Shown one piece after another: positions 14,228-26,456 of a DNA stretch of 64,000 bases. Every line of letters begins with the position of its first letter. Position 1 is the stretch's first letter. Below the pieces are notes generated by a model. The model did no database searches, had not been told where the DNA came from, and was given only the letters and a program-made list of their open reading frames with translations. Source of the stretch: Escherichia phage EP_H11; the sequence record OP688485. One strand, 5' to 3'. A program made the translations under genes and the position numbers.

Positions 14228-17200
14228 TTAGCTAAAGTATGCGCGAACGTTCTTAACGAACGGACGGTTAACTGGGTTAGATAGAGACAGGGTGATGCGG
14301 ATGCGGGTATTAGCCACATTTACTCCTGACAGTTTGTAAGGTACAGTATGCCAACCATCTCCCAGAGCGGTTCCGGTACTCCCAGGCAAAGACACCCATT
14401 CACTGCCTTTCTGGTACTGAACGGTTACGCTAGCTCCGGACGGTACATACTGATCTAGGATGACATTAAGAGTTACCGGAGTAACGTTACCATTAGGAAT
14501 ACTGAACTGTCGCTGGGTATATACCCCAGGAGAATCAGTGGTACCAGAACGGAAGATGACACCACCGAAGACCTTCGGAGATACAGTAGGATCACCGGTA
14601 TTAAACTCAGCCATCAGACTGAAAGTACCAGAGAAGTTCTCAGTGTACGTTTCAGAGTTAACGTTGAGGTTAATGTTATCAGTACCGTTGGTGAGGTAGA
14701 ATCTCACAGAGGTATTTGCCGGAGTCTCAATATCAGCAGTAAGTGACAGACTGTTGGTATTGCTGGCTACTGTTACAGAGCCCAAGTTAACAGTGCGGGT
14801 AGAACTGTAGTCAGCAGCATGGAGACGATACATTAAGTCTTCATCCTGAACCGGAGACCAGGTAGATTCGTTCGCAGAAGTTAACAGTACACCTTGAGCT
14901 GGCTGATTCACTACATACTGTTTCTTATCGGTATCGTACCCATTGATCTTAGCCGTAGCTACCTTACCCTGATAGTTAGCCGTAGCGACGATGATGGCGT
15001 ACTCAGTACCACCAGTCACTGTTACTGGGTAACGAAGATTGATCTTGTTCCATCCCAGTACGCACTTATTAGCAGGAACTTCACCGAAGCCATAAAGCTG
15101 GGTAGAGTTTGGAATACCGACTAAAGTCGGAACCAGCTTAATCTGGAGCGTGTTGGTAGGTAGTTCAGTCAGATATACAGATACTGCGTTAATGTCACGA
15201 GTTGCCTGAAGAGTAAAGGTCTGAGCCACAGGATCATAACCCCATGGTACAGCTCCACCAGTCCAGTTTTGACCGTAGTCGACCTTGCCGGAGTTATAGA
15301 TGGTTACGGTACCACGAGTCACGGCCTTGGTGGTCTTACCGGTAGCAACATACTGGTACGTACCGTTAATCAAACCACCGGATAGCATGTGGGCATACTG
15401 TACTGCACCGTTATCATCTGCAGTCAAGGTAACCACCGGTAGGTTACGGAAGGTAAGATCAATCTTCTCATTAGCAGCATACCCAGACAGCTTAATCGTG
15501 ATCGTAGTATCTACCGGCAGAAAGCCACCATGGAAGTACGACCAGAAGCTACGCGTATCGATCTTAGCTGGTGAAACAGAGATCATCGCCTGAGGTACCT
15601 GACCAGACCCAGCATACGGGTTGATGCGGGTGTCCTTAGTACGGAATTCCTGAGACTGAATTACGGTATCAGTGAATGATAACATAGCACCATCAGGAGC
15701 CAGACCGGACTGTCGCGAGAAAGATGCTCCGATGAACAGCTGACCATCATCGATAATGGCGTTGTTGGTTAATCCAGCATCACGCATGTTACCGTTAAGC
15801 AGGGAGTCAACTACCACACCTTTCTTAGTCGTAGTCGGATCGGTAGAGCGAGTTTCATCACGGAGCGAAAGCTGGGCGATGTTGTACTGCATGTCGCTTA
15901 CCAGAGACATCAGATCTTTCAGCTCATTGTAAGTAACTACTTCGATACGATCATTGTTGATGACCGGATCCTGACCTTTAGTCAGACGAATAGTTGCGAT
16001 AGACAGCAACGTAGCGGAAGTGCCTGGCAGTTGAGCATTCGCCAGGATTGCTGGAATACCCTTAGTGATCTGAACCGCACCGGAGGCATCTATAGATACA
16101 CGGTCATAGCGAGACAGGAAGTAAGAGTAGGTTACATAGAACGTAGACCCAGATACCAGAGCATCACCGGTGGAGATAGTGATGGAAGTATTGTTCCAGG
16201 TTGGGACGAACTGGTCAATATACTGATACGTAACCTGATAGGTAGATCCAGGAGATGGTTCGTTACCAGTAGGTGACCAGTCTACGGAGTCCCCGTTCTG
16301 TACATAGTCACTGCCTTTAACATACACAGTACCACCCTGCTGTACAGAAATAATCTGCAGAACAGGAGTATCCGGAAGTAAGTCAGACGAACCAGTTGCG
16401 GAGCCGTGAGTTACCGTACGAGTTACCTGCTTAGTACCAGAAACAGCAGTCACCTGATCAATTACAGAGTAGCGCAATTGATAGGTGTAAGTACCTGCTG
16501 TAAACACATACGGCTCGGAAGCTACGTTACCGGTATCGTTGATAGGGTCCAGACGCACGGTACTTTCATAGGCAAACAGTGCTTCATTACCAAGTACACG
16601 AGCCTTGCCCGCAGCCATGTTCAACATGATCTGCTGGGTAGAACCATCGATACCTGCATAAGAAAGAGTTAGCCCATCCAGAACATAGTTACCGTGAGTG
16701 TCAGAATCGTAGCGGCCAAGAAGACCAGAGAACTGGTCGAGATCATTACGGGACTTAGTGGTCTTAACCAGTACACCATTCTTGAAGTAGAATACCGGGA
16801 AGAAAGTATCACCCTCAGGAACATCGTCAGACAGGAGCCAAGTGGTCACCTTCTGGAGACGATCAGCACCAGCTGAACCATAGCTAGGAGAGTTCTGATA
16901 CTTCATGAGAAGCTCAGGATCATCAAGATATGTGACTACCTTATCAGAGATAGATACACCTAAAACAGCCTCTCCAGAAGTCGGGAACGATGCGTCAGTA
17001 ACAGCAGGTACATTCATAGCCATCCCGGCGTAGATTAGAGTACCCTCGGTTATAGAGATTACACCGTCCCCGAGAGCAGAAATATCCACCCCATCAGTAA
17101 TGGCACCATCACCGACCAAGAAGCCGGACAGTGTAGAGACGTTATTGAGCTGCTGATCCTGAATTTCGTTTAGCTCCGAGCTCTGGAGCGGTCTGTCCGC

Positions 17201-24113: not shown

Positions 24114-26456
24114 TTAAGCAACAGTTAACGATTTCCAGCCTGTCGGTGTATAGATATAAGGGATACCAGTGGTAAAGTTTTGGGTGATGCTGCCGATAGC
24201 TGGAACATTAAAGCTCCCCACATAGTTACCCTCAACGCCACCAGCAACAACACAGTTATTTAGGACAATAAATCCTGTAGACATAGTACCTATACGCAAA
24301 TTGATAACGCGTAGGTTATGGGCATGTATACGACAAGCTCCTGATAGTACTAAATCACCATCTACAAAAACATCCTGGAAGGATACATCATAAAGATTTG
24401 ACGAGGTATTACCTGTATAAACCAGGTTAGAGTTGATATATACCTTGTCAAACTTCCAAGGATCTTTAAGAGTCACAACACCAATAAATACCGCATTGCT
24501 AGCAGCGTTGTTAATACCATTCAAAGTACTAACACCAGATACCCTAAAACCATCAGACAAATAGTTTCGAGTACCATTAACCAAAAGCGTCTGAGCAGTA
24601 ACCTGGGTTAATGTATTGCGGTCACCCAACGTAAGATTAGTGATAGAACCCCTTGCTACATCACTACCCGTTAAGAAAACTACAGCACATTCGAGTCTAC
24701 CGTAACGCCCACCAATACCAGTAAATGTGGCATTAGCTCCAGTAGCTCTTAAAATACCAACGTTAAAGTTGGCAGAGGAACTAGTAATTTGAGATGATTC
24801 CCCAGTAACCGTCAGTGCATCAATATTAGTGTTGGCCCCATTCGTTACAATAACATCACCAGAAAGGTTTATAGTGCCAGCACTCAAAGTACCCCTTGGT
24901 GTGGTGAATGCGTAGTGAATGGAAAGGTTAGACCGAGGCAAGCTAAGCTCACCAATGCTAGTATCATCTGCAACCAATTCGCATACAACAGGTATAGAAC
25001 CGGATACAGGTAAATCTCGTACAGAGCCATAGGTGGTCCCAAGCCCTTGCAACAGAATGTTGGCATACCCCCACCCATTGTCGGCAATTGTCGCAGAGCT
25101 TGACACGGCATTGGAAGTAACCATAGTGGCCTCGACGTGAATCTCGCCAATGTCTGAAAGGTCTGCACTACAATGCAAGGCACGGTCTAGTGAATTATGA
25201 CTCTCAATTCTGTCAATGACCATGCAGTTGGTATTATCAGGGCGAGTACCCTTGTAACCTGCAATATCAATAGCCCAGAACAAAGCGTTACCGCAATTCA
25301 CTGTACGGATATCTGAAATCACAGAATCATAGGAACCAAGCACCCACACACCAGGTCCATTGACATCAGTAGCACACAATGCACCTGATACCATAGTACC
25401 GGATGTAACATGTAACTGACCTCCACAGGATGCACCCCGGTTAGATACATCGCGTACTACAATATTATCGAACGATTGGTTACCTACAGTAGTACCAAAG
25501 ATGATGCCAGCAGTGTTAAACTTAGCGTTTAAGTTAACCAAAGCCCATTGTATGTTAGAATAACCAGGGGCTGTTAAGCCAGCAATTTTAGTAGAGTCAA
25601 ACAGTAAAGAGAAACAACCTCGAATGGTTTTTAACCCGGTAATATCAATACCTTTCTCTACATAAATACCTGTGTAGATATAGTGGTTTTCAGAAGCAAT
25701 TCCTGTATCCAAAATATACTTCAAAGACTTTGCTCTGTTGATAGCTGCTTGTAGCTTATCAGATTGGTCTACTCTTGGTCCAGAGCTATTTCCCTCTGTT
25801 GTAATACCATAATCTGAAAGACTTACACAATCTGTTACCCTTTCTAGATAAACTCCAGACTGATTAGTTGGTACGCAGATGTGTCCTCCGTCGTCAGTAG
25901 CAGCTCCCTCTTTAACTATAAACTCCCCACCACCAAATTTACCAAGATTGTAGTAAGAAGATAGTTTAATTCTCTGACCAACAGATAAATTGGTTAATAG
26001 CCTCAGACTATCGAAGGAATTAACAGTACCTACTAGAGAGTACCCAGTGGGTTTAGATAATTCAATTAGCGACCACTGGTAAAGCTCCATCTCCTTCCAT
26101 AATCCTGTAGGATTAGTTTCTTTATTGTAAATTCCACCGCTATTGGAAGGTGTTCTACCTGGAGCAACCACCTTAGGGATATTTCCCAGCCACTCATACC
26201 AGGTCTTAGATTCTTCATCGTACGCAACCTGATCTGCTGAGGATAAAGTAAACCCCATCCCGAAAGATCCCAGAGGATCTTTATTGAAGACATCTCTGAA
26301 AGTCTTTAGGGATAAGTCACCAAGGTACTGAGTCCTGTTGGCTAACTGCTTAATGGGCACATTGTCGATACCCTCATCGCCACCTTGTACAGGATCAGTC
26401 TCTTCCCATAAATAAACCTGCTCCGGAAACTGATGCTGGCCTTTAATGTTACCCAT
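24114..26456 (-). CDS. tailspike protein
   Basis: 780 aa, repetitive Asn/Gly/Thr-rich segments. Confidence 0.5.
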   Translation of the reverse strand: MGNIKGQHQFPEQVYLWEETDPVQGGDEGIDNVPIKQLANRTQYLGDLSLKTFRDVFNKDPLGSFGMGFTLSSADQVAYDEESKTWYEWLGNIPKVVAPGRTPSNSGGIYNKETNPTGLWKEMELYQWSLIELSKPTGYSLVGTVNSFDSLRLLTNLSVGQRIKLSSYYNLGKFGGGEFIVKEGAATDDGGHICVPTNQSGVYLERVTDCVSLSDYGITTEGNSSGPRVDQSDKLQAAINRAKSLKYILDTGIASENHYIYTGIYVEKGIDITGLKTIRGCFSLLFDSTKIAGLTAPGYSNIQWALVNLNAKFNTAGIIFGTTVGNQSFDNIVVRDVSNRGASCGGQLHVTSGTMVSGALCATDVNGPGVWVLGSYDSVISDIRTVNCGNALFWAIDIAGYKGTRPDNTNCMVIDRIESHNSLDRALHCSADLSDIGEIHVEATMVTSNAVSSSATIADNGWGYANILLQGLGTTYGSVRDLPVSGSIPVVCELVADDTSIGELSLPRSNLSIHYAFTTPRGTLSAGTINLSGDVIVTNGANTNIDALTVTGESSQITSSSANFNVGILRATGANATFTGIGGRYGRLECAVVFLTGSDVARGSITNLTLGDRNTLTQVTAQTLLVNGTRNYLSDGFRVSGVSTLNGINNAASNAVFIGVVTLKDPWKFDKVYINSNLVYTGNTSSNLYDVSFQDVFVDGDLVLSGACRIHAHNLRVINLRIGTMSTGFIVLNNCVVAGGVEGNYVGSFNVPAIGSITQNFTTGIPYIYTPTGWKSLTVA

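Follow-up and report, generated by a model that had tools for sequence, protein, structure and literature searches.

A probable host-recognition module with four tailspike-type genes in an IME392/EP_H11-type Escherichia coli myovirus

Six large open reading frames follow one another at 14228-26456 of the 64,000-nt stretch of DNA analyzed here (the window). How many of them encode receptor-binding spikes, where do these spikes come from, and does the AT-rich gap between two of them have a regulatory function? The phage is an E. coli myovirus of a little-studied type, with Escherichia phage vB_EcoM_IME392 as a near relative. Taken as a whole, our best explanation, which we hold with good confidence, is that this 12-kb region is the host-recognition (receptor-binding, host-range) module of an IME392/EP_H11-type E. 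coli myovirus. Four of its genes would be sugar-cutting tailspike-type genes, in which conserved anchors are fused to imported enzyme modules of predicted activity.

Gene content and order

The reading made from sequence only had placed six tail-fibre or tailspike genes downstream of a baseplate module. All six minus-strand frames are confirmed to the nucleotide, and the placement is borne out by gp25-like, Baseplate_J-like, and hub/spike-like genes that precede them:

14042-14218, minus strand: 58-aa ORF
14228-17272, minus strand: p1014 (1014 aa), VrlC/DUF4815 protein
17283-18104, minus strand: p273 (273 aa), BW3TFN connector or baseplate "arm segment" with an inserted Fn3-like domain, T4 gp8/A511 gp105 type
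18121-19539, minus strand: p472 (472 aa), short spike-like protein, tailspike 4 or docking adaptor
19655-22129, minus strand: p824 (824 aa), tailspike 3; anchor about aa 1-234, predicted capsule-depolymerase-type beta-helix module aa 235-824
22370-24052, minus strand: p560 (560 aa), tailspike 2; anchor about aa 1-110, spike module aa 111-559
24114-26456, minus strand: p780 (780 aa), tailspike 1; anchor aa 1-132 (nt 26061-26456) with Tail_spike_N at aa 64-110, predicted depolymerase module aa 133-780
26467-27981, minus strand: p504 (504 aa), outside the 12-kb span; N-terminal ~213 aa conserved, C-terminal ~290 aa variable
27959-29332: Baseplate_J-like gene
29329-29832: gp25-like baseplate gene
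29705-30364: hub/spike-like gene

Transcription would run from the Baseplate_J-like wedge gene through p504, then p780, p560, p824, and p472, to p273, p1014, the 58-aa ORF, and the lysis cassette. The proposal of a multi-spike receptor-binding cluster with polysaccharide-depolymerase-type proteins is supported for four of the six genes: p824 and p780 are depolymerase homologues, and p560 and p472 are also spike-type. The remaining two, p273 and p1014, are instead components of the baseplate periphery. The Asn/Gly/Ser-rich composition noted earlier in at least two frames extends to all six (N+G+S 25-28%, versus 20.4% in the remaining late proteins).

The IME392 backbone is 93-96% identical in nucleotide sequence on both flanks, and no such identity is found from ~17708 to 27353. 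A different cassette of 15 kb occupies this site in IME392; its 11 genes are not those of the window, and among them are fibres, chaperones, and a colanidase-like spike. In a third relative, the Logan contig L002, the p824 anchor is joined to a different C-terminus; the spike set of a fourth, L004, is different again.

The nucleotide homology to IME392 ends within the p504 gene, which shares 23 nt with the end of the Baseplate_J-like gene. Residues 6-213 of p504 hardly vary across three relatives, and identity in the C-terminal half is ~35%; the whole protein has a 100% identical counterpart in Escherichia phage EP_H11, a hypothetical protein. The functional unit probably takes in p504 as well, its C-terminal half varying together with the spike set. 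Because Pfam, PHROG, and PDB searches with p504 returned no match and its AF2 model is unusable (pLDDT 29), we assign it by position only, as a probable candidate for baseplate wedge 3 or the arm scaffold.

Spike anchors and enzyme modules

Judged by sequence comparison, each spike has a lineage-specific N-terminal anchor in common with IME392, and the three larger ones, p780, p560, and p824, are shown to carry horizontally acquired C-terminal modules of predicted polysaccharide-depolymerase type. Two of these three modules trace to the N4-like Gamaleyavirus spike locus and one to the Klebsiella KP32gp38/K11/K64-1 S1-3 family. A beta-helix fold is inferred for all three proteins. Anchored spikes with exchangeable modules are already a well-known design.

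In p780 the anchor is recognized by Pfam PF18668 (48 bits, cut-off 25), and aa 1-165 share 39-46% identity with the two short Tail_spike_N proteins that IME392 encodes. The module (aa 133-780) is 88% identical to that of the N4-like Gamaleyavirus NAN33P5, with 86.6% nucleotide identity over window positions 24133-25814. Residues 94-780 also have 64.6% identity to positions 35366-37408 of Klebsiella phage KN4-1, a part of KN4dep (34859-37408), a capsule depolymerase of experimentally proven activity (PMC6465236), and the PDB depolymerases 7vyv and 7lzj are matched at E 1e-9. The p560 anchor resembles that of p780 (aa 9-78 against aa 7-77, E 7e-4), and its aa 1-59 share 49% identity with the N-terminal end of the 995-aa IME392 fibre. 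Its module (aa 111-559) is 76% identical to tailspike Gp76 of the Gamaleyavirus-type Escherichia phage 24-32N, and aa 194-384 match the PDB tailspike depolymerase 24qj (E 1.5e-11). In Gamaleyavirus (G7C-like N4-type podophages with a gp66/gp63.1 tailspike pair), the counterparts of the p780 and p560 modules are alternative alleles of the spike gene located at 3.7-5.7 kb of the genomes; Gp66 gives the Tail_spike_N family its name. The window differs in morphotype and anchors, and in that both alleles coexist in one genome as separate genes.

Over aa 1-204, p824 shares 47.5% identity with the N-terminus of the IME392 "colanic acid-degrading protein", and over aa 78-224 it shares 90% with the L002 gene that has the different C-terminus. 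Its homologues assign p824 to the KP32gp38/K11/K64-1 S1-3 depolymerase family: aa 274-823 match the solved KP32gp38 depolymerase (6tku, E 1.2e-42), PHROG 19988 "tail spike protein" is hit at E 1.6e-139, and identities are 53% to Klebsiella jumbo phage LPKP23, 43% to K11, and 36% to K64-1 S1-3. The Pfam Beta_helix model stays under its cut-off (20.3 versus 25.9 bits). Both frames that had been singled out as depolymerase-like, p824 and p780, accordingly hold up on their matches to KP32gp38 (E 1e-42) and KN4dep.

The fourth spike-like protein, p472, is shorter. A pectate-lyase-type cap motif lies near aa 150-190, and the protein ends in a portable ~100-aa beta-sandwich (aa ~373-471). Its structural model, which has low confidence over the first 150 aa, is matched better by spike N-terminal and gp9/gp10-type domains than by a long beta-helix, so p472 may serve as an adaptor and not bind receptors itself. 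In this role it would be a branching adaptor that docks the other spikes, like the N-terminal part of CBA120 TSP4 or T4 gp9/gp10, and would be neither receptor-binding nor enzymatic. Consistent with this, p472 is the only spike-like gene whose position and length are kept in all relatives, and hundreds of proteins contain its C-terminal domain, as one copy or in tandem, frequently on the immediate N-terminal side of pectate-lyase-type helices. However, homologues of aa 150-471 form the entire body of stand-alone spikes with P22 Head_binding or Tail_spike_N N-termini, and a profile match links p472 to the beta-helix cap found in Sf6 tailspike and in glycosidases. The protein is moreover only 39% identical between the window and IME392 and therefore varies like receptor binders. 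We thus regard an adaptor as possible, with a fourth tailspike the likelier assignment.

A related question is whether the spikes are directed at Klebsiella capsules instead of E. coli surfaces, making Klebsiella the true or an additional host. The closest characterized relatives of p780 and p824 are indeed Klebsiella capsule depolymerases (KN4dep at 65%; K11, K64-1 S1-3, and KP32gp38 at 28-43%; jumbo phages at 53%), and the fossil flank described below matches Klebsiella phages only. At the nucleotide level, the p780 and p560 modules nevertheless have the E. coli Gamaleyaviruses 24-32N and CU10EC among their nearest relatives, and both IME392, the backbone relative, and EP_H11, with its identical p504, are Escherichia phages. 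Klebsiella K antigens also resemble E. coli group 1 capsules. A Klebsiella host therefore seems doubtful to us. Compared with the Klebsiella tailspikes (KP32gp38, K11, K64-1 S1-3, KN4dep, and those of multi-depolymerase phages such as PhiK64-1), p824 and p780 are homologous along the full length of the catalytic body; the N-terminal adaptors here are lineage-specific, and identity is 28-65%, so substrate specificity is not transferable.

The 240-nt gap upstream of p824

The gap between p560 and p824 is real, 240 nt long, and AT-rich (34% GC, versus about 43-47% in the surrounding 1-kb windows). It is not the only sizeable gap in the late operon, as had been supposed:

42742-42890: 149-nt gap with a clear terminator hairpin and a TTGACA-type promoter-like site
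22130-22369: 240-nt gap
22255-22369, minus strand: its upstream half, apparent fossil 3' flank of a tailspike cassette
22342-22358: decayed terminator hairpin in the upstream half
22259-22282: dead small-ORF start in the upstream half
22130-22254, minus strand: its downstream half, AT-rich, with TATAAATA at 22171-22178 and the AGGAG ribosome-binding site of p824 at 22137-22141
19540-19654: 115-nt gap inside the same spike cluster

Searched by blastn against 2.3 Gb of phage DNA, the upstream half matches Webervirus K54lambda2 (77% over 96 nt, E 2e-10) and Jedunavirus KpV79 and relatives (87% over 62 nt, E 5e-11), collinear from the first base past the stop codon. In these phages the counterpart is found directly 3' of a tailspike gene and is made up of a GC hairpin terminator, a spacer, and a small-ORF start, MKNEEIRI. 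In the window, only 4 bp of the stem remain and the T-run is missing; the start codon reads ATT instead of ATG, and a stop closes the frame after 18 codons. The gap looks like a recombination scar of an imported tailspike cassette, its first ~110 nt corresponding to the terminator and small-ORF flank. With the terminator inactivated, transcription could read through into p824-p1014. For the downstream half (125 nt), similarity to the Klebsiella-phage flanks does not exceed chance, none was found to IME392 or L002, and there is no Rfam match and a folding z-score of -0.59.

The motif TATAAATA had been proposed as an internal late promoter. It is present where it was reported, on the coding strand 41 nt before the ATG (22129), in the longest and most AT-rich non-coding stretch of the late block, and the fossil terminator immediately upstream suggests a former transcription boundary. 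A genuine T4-type late promoter here could boost or separately time p824, p472, p273, and p1014. The proposal nevertheless lacks statistical and comparative support. Chance alone would give 4.2 exact copies in 64 kb, and there are 2; with one mismatch allowed, copies are again fewer than expected (71 versus 91 ± 9.6), and the motif is upstream of no other late gene in the 38-kb block. The orthologous IME392 junction is a 123-nt gap without the motif and without sequence conservation before the ribosome-binding site, and L004 has no gaps between its spike genes. A scan for sigma-70-type sites at the gap gave at best 9/12, with counts equal to those of shuffles. We consider such a promoter improbable and TATAAATA most likely a chance AT-rich word.

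Conserved periphery and known multi-spike systems

Residues 146-273 of p273 match Pfam PF25691 at 97.8 bits (cut-off 27), with further matches to A511 gp105 (6hhk, E 0.02) and an Fn3-like domain (3mpc, E 7.5e-4); the protein is 67.5% identical to its IME392 and 98% to its L002 counterpart. The role of the BW3TFN arm-segment fold is described in PMC10811340 and PMC13433997. In p1014, aa 8-570 match Pfam PF16075 (434 bits) and aa 6-486 match a phage 812 baseplate chain (9euf_0, 1152 aa, DUF4815; E 2e-44) that is probably the tripod. By tblastn, p1014 is 31% identical to Wolbachia phage WO VrlC over 87% of its length and 24-27% identical to Herelleviridae "adsorption-associated tail proteins" over 64-89%, and aa 680-828 match Ackermannviridae VrlC. 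It is 97% identical in IME392 despite the other spike set. We rejected p273 and p1014 as usual fibres or spikes: their BW3TFN and VrlC/DUF4815 family matches are far above curated cut-offs, and both are conserved (67% and 97% aa identity) in IME392, whose spike set differs completely.

In the mechanism we propose, spike trimers would be attached by their anchors to p504, at its variable C-terminal half, and to the p273 arm. These spikes would bind and cleave different capsule or O-antigen types, so that the virion could use several hosts. The conserved p1014 tripod would then engage a conserved secondary receptor and join in baseplate triggering, as in phage 812.

In Ackermannviridae, spike genes are flanked by a baseplate wedge gene and vrlC, inside a variable area of ~12.5 kb (PMC10892097). 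The window resembles the TSP1-TSP4 loci of CBA120/Vi01 (Kuttervirus) in having four spike genes in ~12 kb between a wedge gene and VrlC, and their branched tailspike complex in its conserved anchors and exchanged catalytic modules; p780 has the Tail_spike_N (TSP1/Gp66) domain, and the p472 fold resembles the TSP4 N-terminal region. In contrast, the anchors here have no sequence-level homology to the gp10-like domains of TSP2/TSP4, p1014 has only its aa 680-828 domain in common with Ackermannviridae VrlC and stands nearer to the WO/Herelleviridae type, a BW3TFN gene lies between spikes and VrlC, and the backbone is of an unrelated lineage, the YerA41/SP-15-type DNA polymerase group.

The arms of Herelleviridae (Staphylococcus phage 812, Listeria phage A511) comprise an arm scaffold (BW3), an arm segment (BW3TFN), a VrlC-like tripod, and RBP1/RBP2. 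The phage 812 gene order of arm scaffold, arm segment, and tripod (PMC13433997) parallels p504, p273, and p1014, with p504 as the candidate scaffold; p273 belongs to the arm-segment fold family, and the N-terminal 480 aa of p1014 resemble the phage 812 DUF4815 chain. Unlike in Herelleviridae, the host is Gram-negative, four depolymerase-type spikes lie between scaffold and segment, replacing the downstream RBP1/RBP2, and p1014 has a C-terminal half with no relation to the LysM-like hook.

In the p824 slot, IME392 has a homologue annotated as colanic-acid-degrading, like gp150 of Phi92, and 6e0v is a weak fold match for p472. As Schwarzer et al. are said to have reported in 2012, Phi92 is an E. 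coli myovirus with a multivalent adsorption apparatus of several different spikes and fibres. Its backbone has no detected similarity to the window.

Finally, the 58-aa ORF directly after p1014 lies inside an apparent 210-nt gap, and the same gene is called in L002. A family search with it gave no match; by position, it may be a counterpart of the 63-aa "chaperone" that comes after the VrlC-like gene of Bacillus phage Deep-Blue (PMC11406892).

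Spike genes and the exchanged cassette

The six ORFs singled out by the sequence-only reading are all present on the minus strand, and their positions agree exactly with those that it gave. We name them by their length in amino acids and include p504, the gene upstream of p780.

Genes of the cluster in transcription order
26467-27981, minus strand: p504, overlapping the Baseplate_J-like gene
24114-26456, minus strand: p780, first of the six
22370-24052, minus strand: p560, second
19655-22129, minus strand: p824, third
18121-19539, minus strand: p472, fourth
17283-18104, minus strand: p273, fifth
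14228-17272, minus strand: p1014, sixth

The cluster does follow baseplate genes: upstream are encoded a tape-measure-like protein of 945 aa with a lysozyme domain, a hub/spike-like protein of 219 aa, a gp25-like protein of 167 aa, and a Baseplate_J-like protein of 457 aa. A lysis cassette lies downstream of the region. Asn/Gly/Ser richness, remarked on earlier for some of the proteins, is moderate in all six (25-28% vs 20.4% in other late proteins). The description of the cluster as a multi-spike host-range apparatus holds for four of the six genes and fails for p273, a BW3TFN connector, and for p1014, a VrlC/DUF4815 protein; on these two family matches we reject the idea that all six encode fibers or spikes.

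Only one record of the phage collection reaches 93-96% nucleotide identity with the flanks of the region: Escherichia phage vB_EcoM_IME392 (IME392), a 116-kb unclassified myovirus. IME392 and EP_H11 have been assigned to the YerA41/SP-15 DNA-polymerase group, with hypermodified thymidine predicted (PMC12686479; bioRxiv 10.1101/2025.03.26.645540); a literature search found no paper dealing with the tail of either phage. Nucleotide homology with IME392 ends at ~27353, inside p504, and restarts at ~17708, inside p273. Between these points the window holds 9.6 kb and four genes, versus 15 kb and eleven genes in IME392, whose cassette includes fibers, two fiber-assembly chaperones, a 995-aa fiber, and a "colanic acid-degrading" spike. 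Yet other variants of the cassette are carried by two metagenome-derived relatives, the Logan contig L002 and L004. Protein identity with IME392 is 39-46% for p780 aa 1-165, 49% for p560 aa 1-59, 47.5% for p824 aa 1-204, 39% over the whole length of p472, 67.5% for p273, and 97% for p1014. The alignments show the classical pattern in which conserved N-terminal particle-binding parts (anchors) are combined with swapped C-terminal receptor-binding or depolymerase parts (modules).

In p780, p560, and p824, a separate N-terminal anchor is evident, as the first 59-234 aa are homologous to IME392 proteins with differing C-termini, and the central body is homologous to a depolymerase spike whose structure is solved or whose activity is biochemically proven. 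All three are therefore candidate members of the tailspike polysaccharide depolymerases, a class with a right-handed parallel beta-helix of the pectate-lyase superfamily. p780 contains a Tail_spike_N (TSP1/Gp66) domain in Pfam. Its residues 133-780 are 88% identical to an N4-like Gamaleyavirus spike (86.6% at the nucleotide level over 1.7 kb), and residues 94-780 are 64.6% identical to KN4dep, for which capsule degradation was demonstrated with purified protein (PMC6465236). Residues 111-559 of p560 share 76% identity with Gp76, a tailspike from phage 24-32N of the Gamaleyavirus type, and have a further match in 24qj, a tailspike depolymerase of solved structure. In p824, the match to the structure of the capsule depolymerase KP32gp38 (6tku; E 1.2e-42) covers aa 274-823. 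Identity of the body is 53% with Klebsiella jumbo phage spikes, 43% with phage K11, and 36% with K64-1 S1-3; the Pfam Beta_helix score of p824 falls under the cut-off. The p780-like and p560-like modules sit at one and the same gene position in Gamaleyavirus genomes, which means that the window combines two alleles of a single podovirus locus.

The only spike-type protein modeled, p472, gave a structure (pLDDT 76.6) whose matches are at the domain level with low global TM. This model has fold similarity to TSP4-N and gp9. Distant relatives of p472 were reached only by exhaustive HMMER search; word-indexed homologue searches with p472 and p504 returned near-identical proteins only. The isolated anchors gave only subthreshold matches in Pfam. 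Weak homology links the extreme N-termini of p780 and p560 (E 7e-4) and also p780 aa 87-250 with p472 aa 43-185 (E 5e-5), which suggests equivalent docking sites.

Within 23914-33857 of OY979416.1, from Klebsiella phage vB_Kpl_K57alpha1.2, the part that is 88% identical to the p780 spike carries the labels helicase, pyrophosphohydrolase, and HNH, all flagged as pseudogenes. The deposited annotation is out of register with the sequence, and we disregarded it.

Connector, tripod-like protein, and candidate scaffold

Residues 146-273 of p273 belong to the BW3TFN family (PF25691; 97.8 bits, cut-off 27), and the protein also matches 6hhk at E 0.02. T4 gp8, A511 gp105, and the "arm segment" of phage 812 all have the BW3TFN fold; on the wedge-3/arm scaffold its copies follow one another like beads on a string and join receptor binders to the baseplate (PMC10811340; PMC13433997). 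The single IMG/VR match to p273 was to Fn3 and is irrelevant.

p1014 is a VrlC/DUF4815 protein (PF16075; 434 bits). Over the first 480 aa it matches a phage 812 baseplate chain with DUF4815 that is 1152 aa long (9euf_0; E 2e-44). Full-length relatives are VrlC of Wolbachia phage WO (31% identity over 87% of the length) and Herelleviridae "adsorption-associated tail proteins", with Kayvirus proteins at 25-27% identity over 64-85%; Ackermannviridae VrlC has one domain only in common with p1014. In phage 812, the gene order is scaffold gp117, segment gp118, and tripod gp119 (PMC13433997). Given its length, chain count and abundance, and this gene order, the 9euf_0 chain is most likely the tripod protein. 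Since p1014 is almost unchanged in IME392 despite the other spikes there, it is not the strain-specific determinant; we infer a probable role in secondary binding and baseplate triggering. Its C-terminal half gave only subthreshold Pfam matches, as did a 58-aa ORF (MSSNEPWFKTGF...; 14042-14218, minus strand) that directly follows p1014 within an apparent 210-nt gap. This small ORF is called in L002 too, and its position recalls Bacillus phage Deep-Blue, in which the VrlC-like gene is followed by a small "chaperone".

Upstream of the spikes, the first 213 residues of p504 are almost invariant in the relatives, and the C-terminal half varies together with the spike set. Searches of Pfam, PHROG, and PDB, profile searches included, gave no match to p504, and an AF2 model from a two-sequence alignment was unusable (pLDDT 29). 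On the basis of its position after Baseplate_J and its invariant N-terminal half, p504 is a candidate for the wedge-3/arm scaffold (BW3) that carries the spikes, a part represented by T4 gp7, P2 gpI, and the arm scaffold of phage 812. Short motifs recur at aa ~380-500 in the variable half (LRDGTY, LLDGSSRL, LLDGSRYL, and ILRDGKY); these C-terminal repeats might be docking sites for the trimeric spike anchors.

The gap between p560 and p824

The gap at 22130-22369 comprises 240 nt with 34% GC. On its coding strand the T4-type late-promoter-like word TATAAATA occupies 22171-22178, which is 41 nt upstream of the ATG of p824 and is where the sequence-only reading had placed it. That reading also called this the only sizeable gap of the late operon, which is too strong, as there is a 149-nt gap at 42742-42890 and, inside the cluster, a 115-nt gap at 19540-19654; the latter has no homologue in the phage collection.

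The suggestion of an internal late promoter is unsupported by our analysis. Exact copies of TATAAATA number two against 4.2 expected, with one only on the late strand, and copies with one mismatch number 71 against 91 +/- 9.6 expected. We therefore reject a general T4-type late promoter system, the word being no commoner than chance. It is also absent from the orthologous IME392 junction, where nothing before the ribosome-binding site aligns. Rfam and RNA folding revealed no family and no unusual structure in the gap (z = -0.59), tblastx and blastn gave no match to it in IME392, in L002, or elsewhere in the window, and one 26-mer taken from it had no exact counterpart in viral contigs.

In a sensitive DNA search, matches to the first ~110 nt of the gap turned up right after the tailspike genes of two unrelated genera of Klebsiella phages.

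Post-tailspike element
22255-22369, minus strand: copy in the window
3976-4061: copy in L008
3981-4095: copy in L009
3501-3539: copy in L010

Identity is 77% over 96 nt with Webervirus K54lambda2 (E 2e-10), with shorter matches of ~40 nt in the related PKP126 and K63PH128, and 87% over 62 nt with Jedunavirus KpV79 and its relatives (E 5e-11). In the Klebsiella phages, the element is made up of a terminator (GC hairpin), a spacer, and the beginning of a small ORF, MKNEEIRI...; even in KpV79 this ORF is without an ATG. The alignment in the window begins at the first base past the p560 stop codon, the point past which the window shows no homology with 24-32N. In this copy the hairpin is cut to a 4-bp stem with no T-run, ATT replaces the ATG, and the frame runs for just 18 codons. 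The remaining 125 nt of the gap hold TATAAATA and an AGGAG site. They have no detectable relative, with similarity to the Klebsiella flanks no greater than that of shuffles, and nothing supports a promoter within them.

The simplest reading of the element is that a flank hitch-hiked along with an imported spike gene and that its terminator decayed afterward, which would have allowed read-through into p824-p1014. The ~110-nt element may mark spike-cassette exchange. A broader reading, which we consider rather unlikely as a whole, would join this portable post-tailspike 3' flank to a TSP4-like hub formed by p472 and to Herelleviridae-style arms with branched, swappable depolymerases. The flank would then move with tailspikes between phages of Klebsiella and E. 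coli that differ in morphotype, namely the siphophages of Webervirus, the myophages of Jedunavirus, and this myovirus, and it may act as a homology patch in cassette exchange; arm segments and tripods would be present in a Gram-negative, probably thymidine-hypermodified phage.

Known systems and other features of the window

In the Ackermannviridae TSP1-4 locus, spike genes lie between a baseplate wedge gene and vrlC (PMC10892097). The window likewise has a wedge gene, several spikes, and VrlC in ~12 kb. Sequence searches with its anchors gave no match to the gp10-like docking domains of TSP2 and TSP4; the similarity of p472 to TSP4-N is one of fold. The arm-segment and tripod genes are of the type found in Herelleviridae baseplates, and the spike modules are members of Gamaleyavirus and Klebsiella depolymerase families. 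With the layout, arm genes, and modules all known, the locus combines known parts in a new way, within an uncharacterized lineage, and is not a new kind of system. It reveals no new principle; there are good descriptions of modular, horizontally exchanged multi-spike receptor-binding cassettes with wedge and VrlC genes on their flanks.

The practical value of the cluster is modest. It offers four spikes that are candidates for polysaccharide degradation, from a lineage of E. coli phages (IME392/EP_H11) that has been little studied and whose probable hypermodified DNA is its other point of interest. The boundaries between anchor and module are clear and could guide spike engineering or depolymerase mining. 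The cluster also documents that a myovirus and N4-like podoviruses have recently exchanged spike modules (87% nucleotide identity).

We also observed several features outside the cluster. dCTP deaminase and dUTPase genes are annotated in the IME392 region homologous to window 1-12000 (plus strand). The lysis cassette spans 12305-14017.

Lysis cassette
13370-14017, minus strand: GH19-type endolysin
12933-13355, minus strand: 140-aa protein with a hydrophobic N-terminal segment
12648-12857, minus strand: unlisted 69-aa lipoprotein-like ORF with an LVSC lipobox, likely an o-spanin
12305-12637, minus strand: 110-aa protein with a C-terminal hydrophobic segment

The gap at 42742-42890 (minus strand), after a 475-aa ORF (42891-44318), contains a strong intrinsic terminator hairpin, GCTACGGCCTC...GAGGCCGTAGTTTTT, followed by a TTGACA...TAAAT promoter-like sequence, and is the clearest transcription boundary of the late gene block. 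Finally, the 945-aa protein in the tape-measure position (32508-35345, minus strand) has a C-terminal lysozyme/chitinase-like domain at aa ~711-917 and shares its PHROG (181) with the endolysin of the phage.
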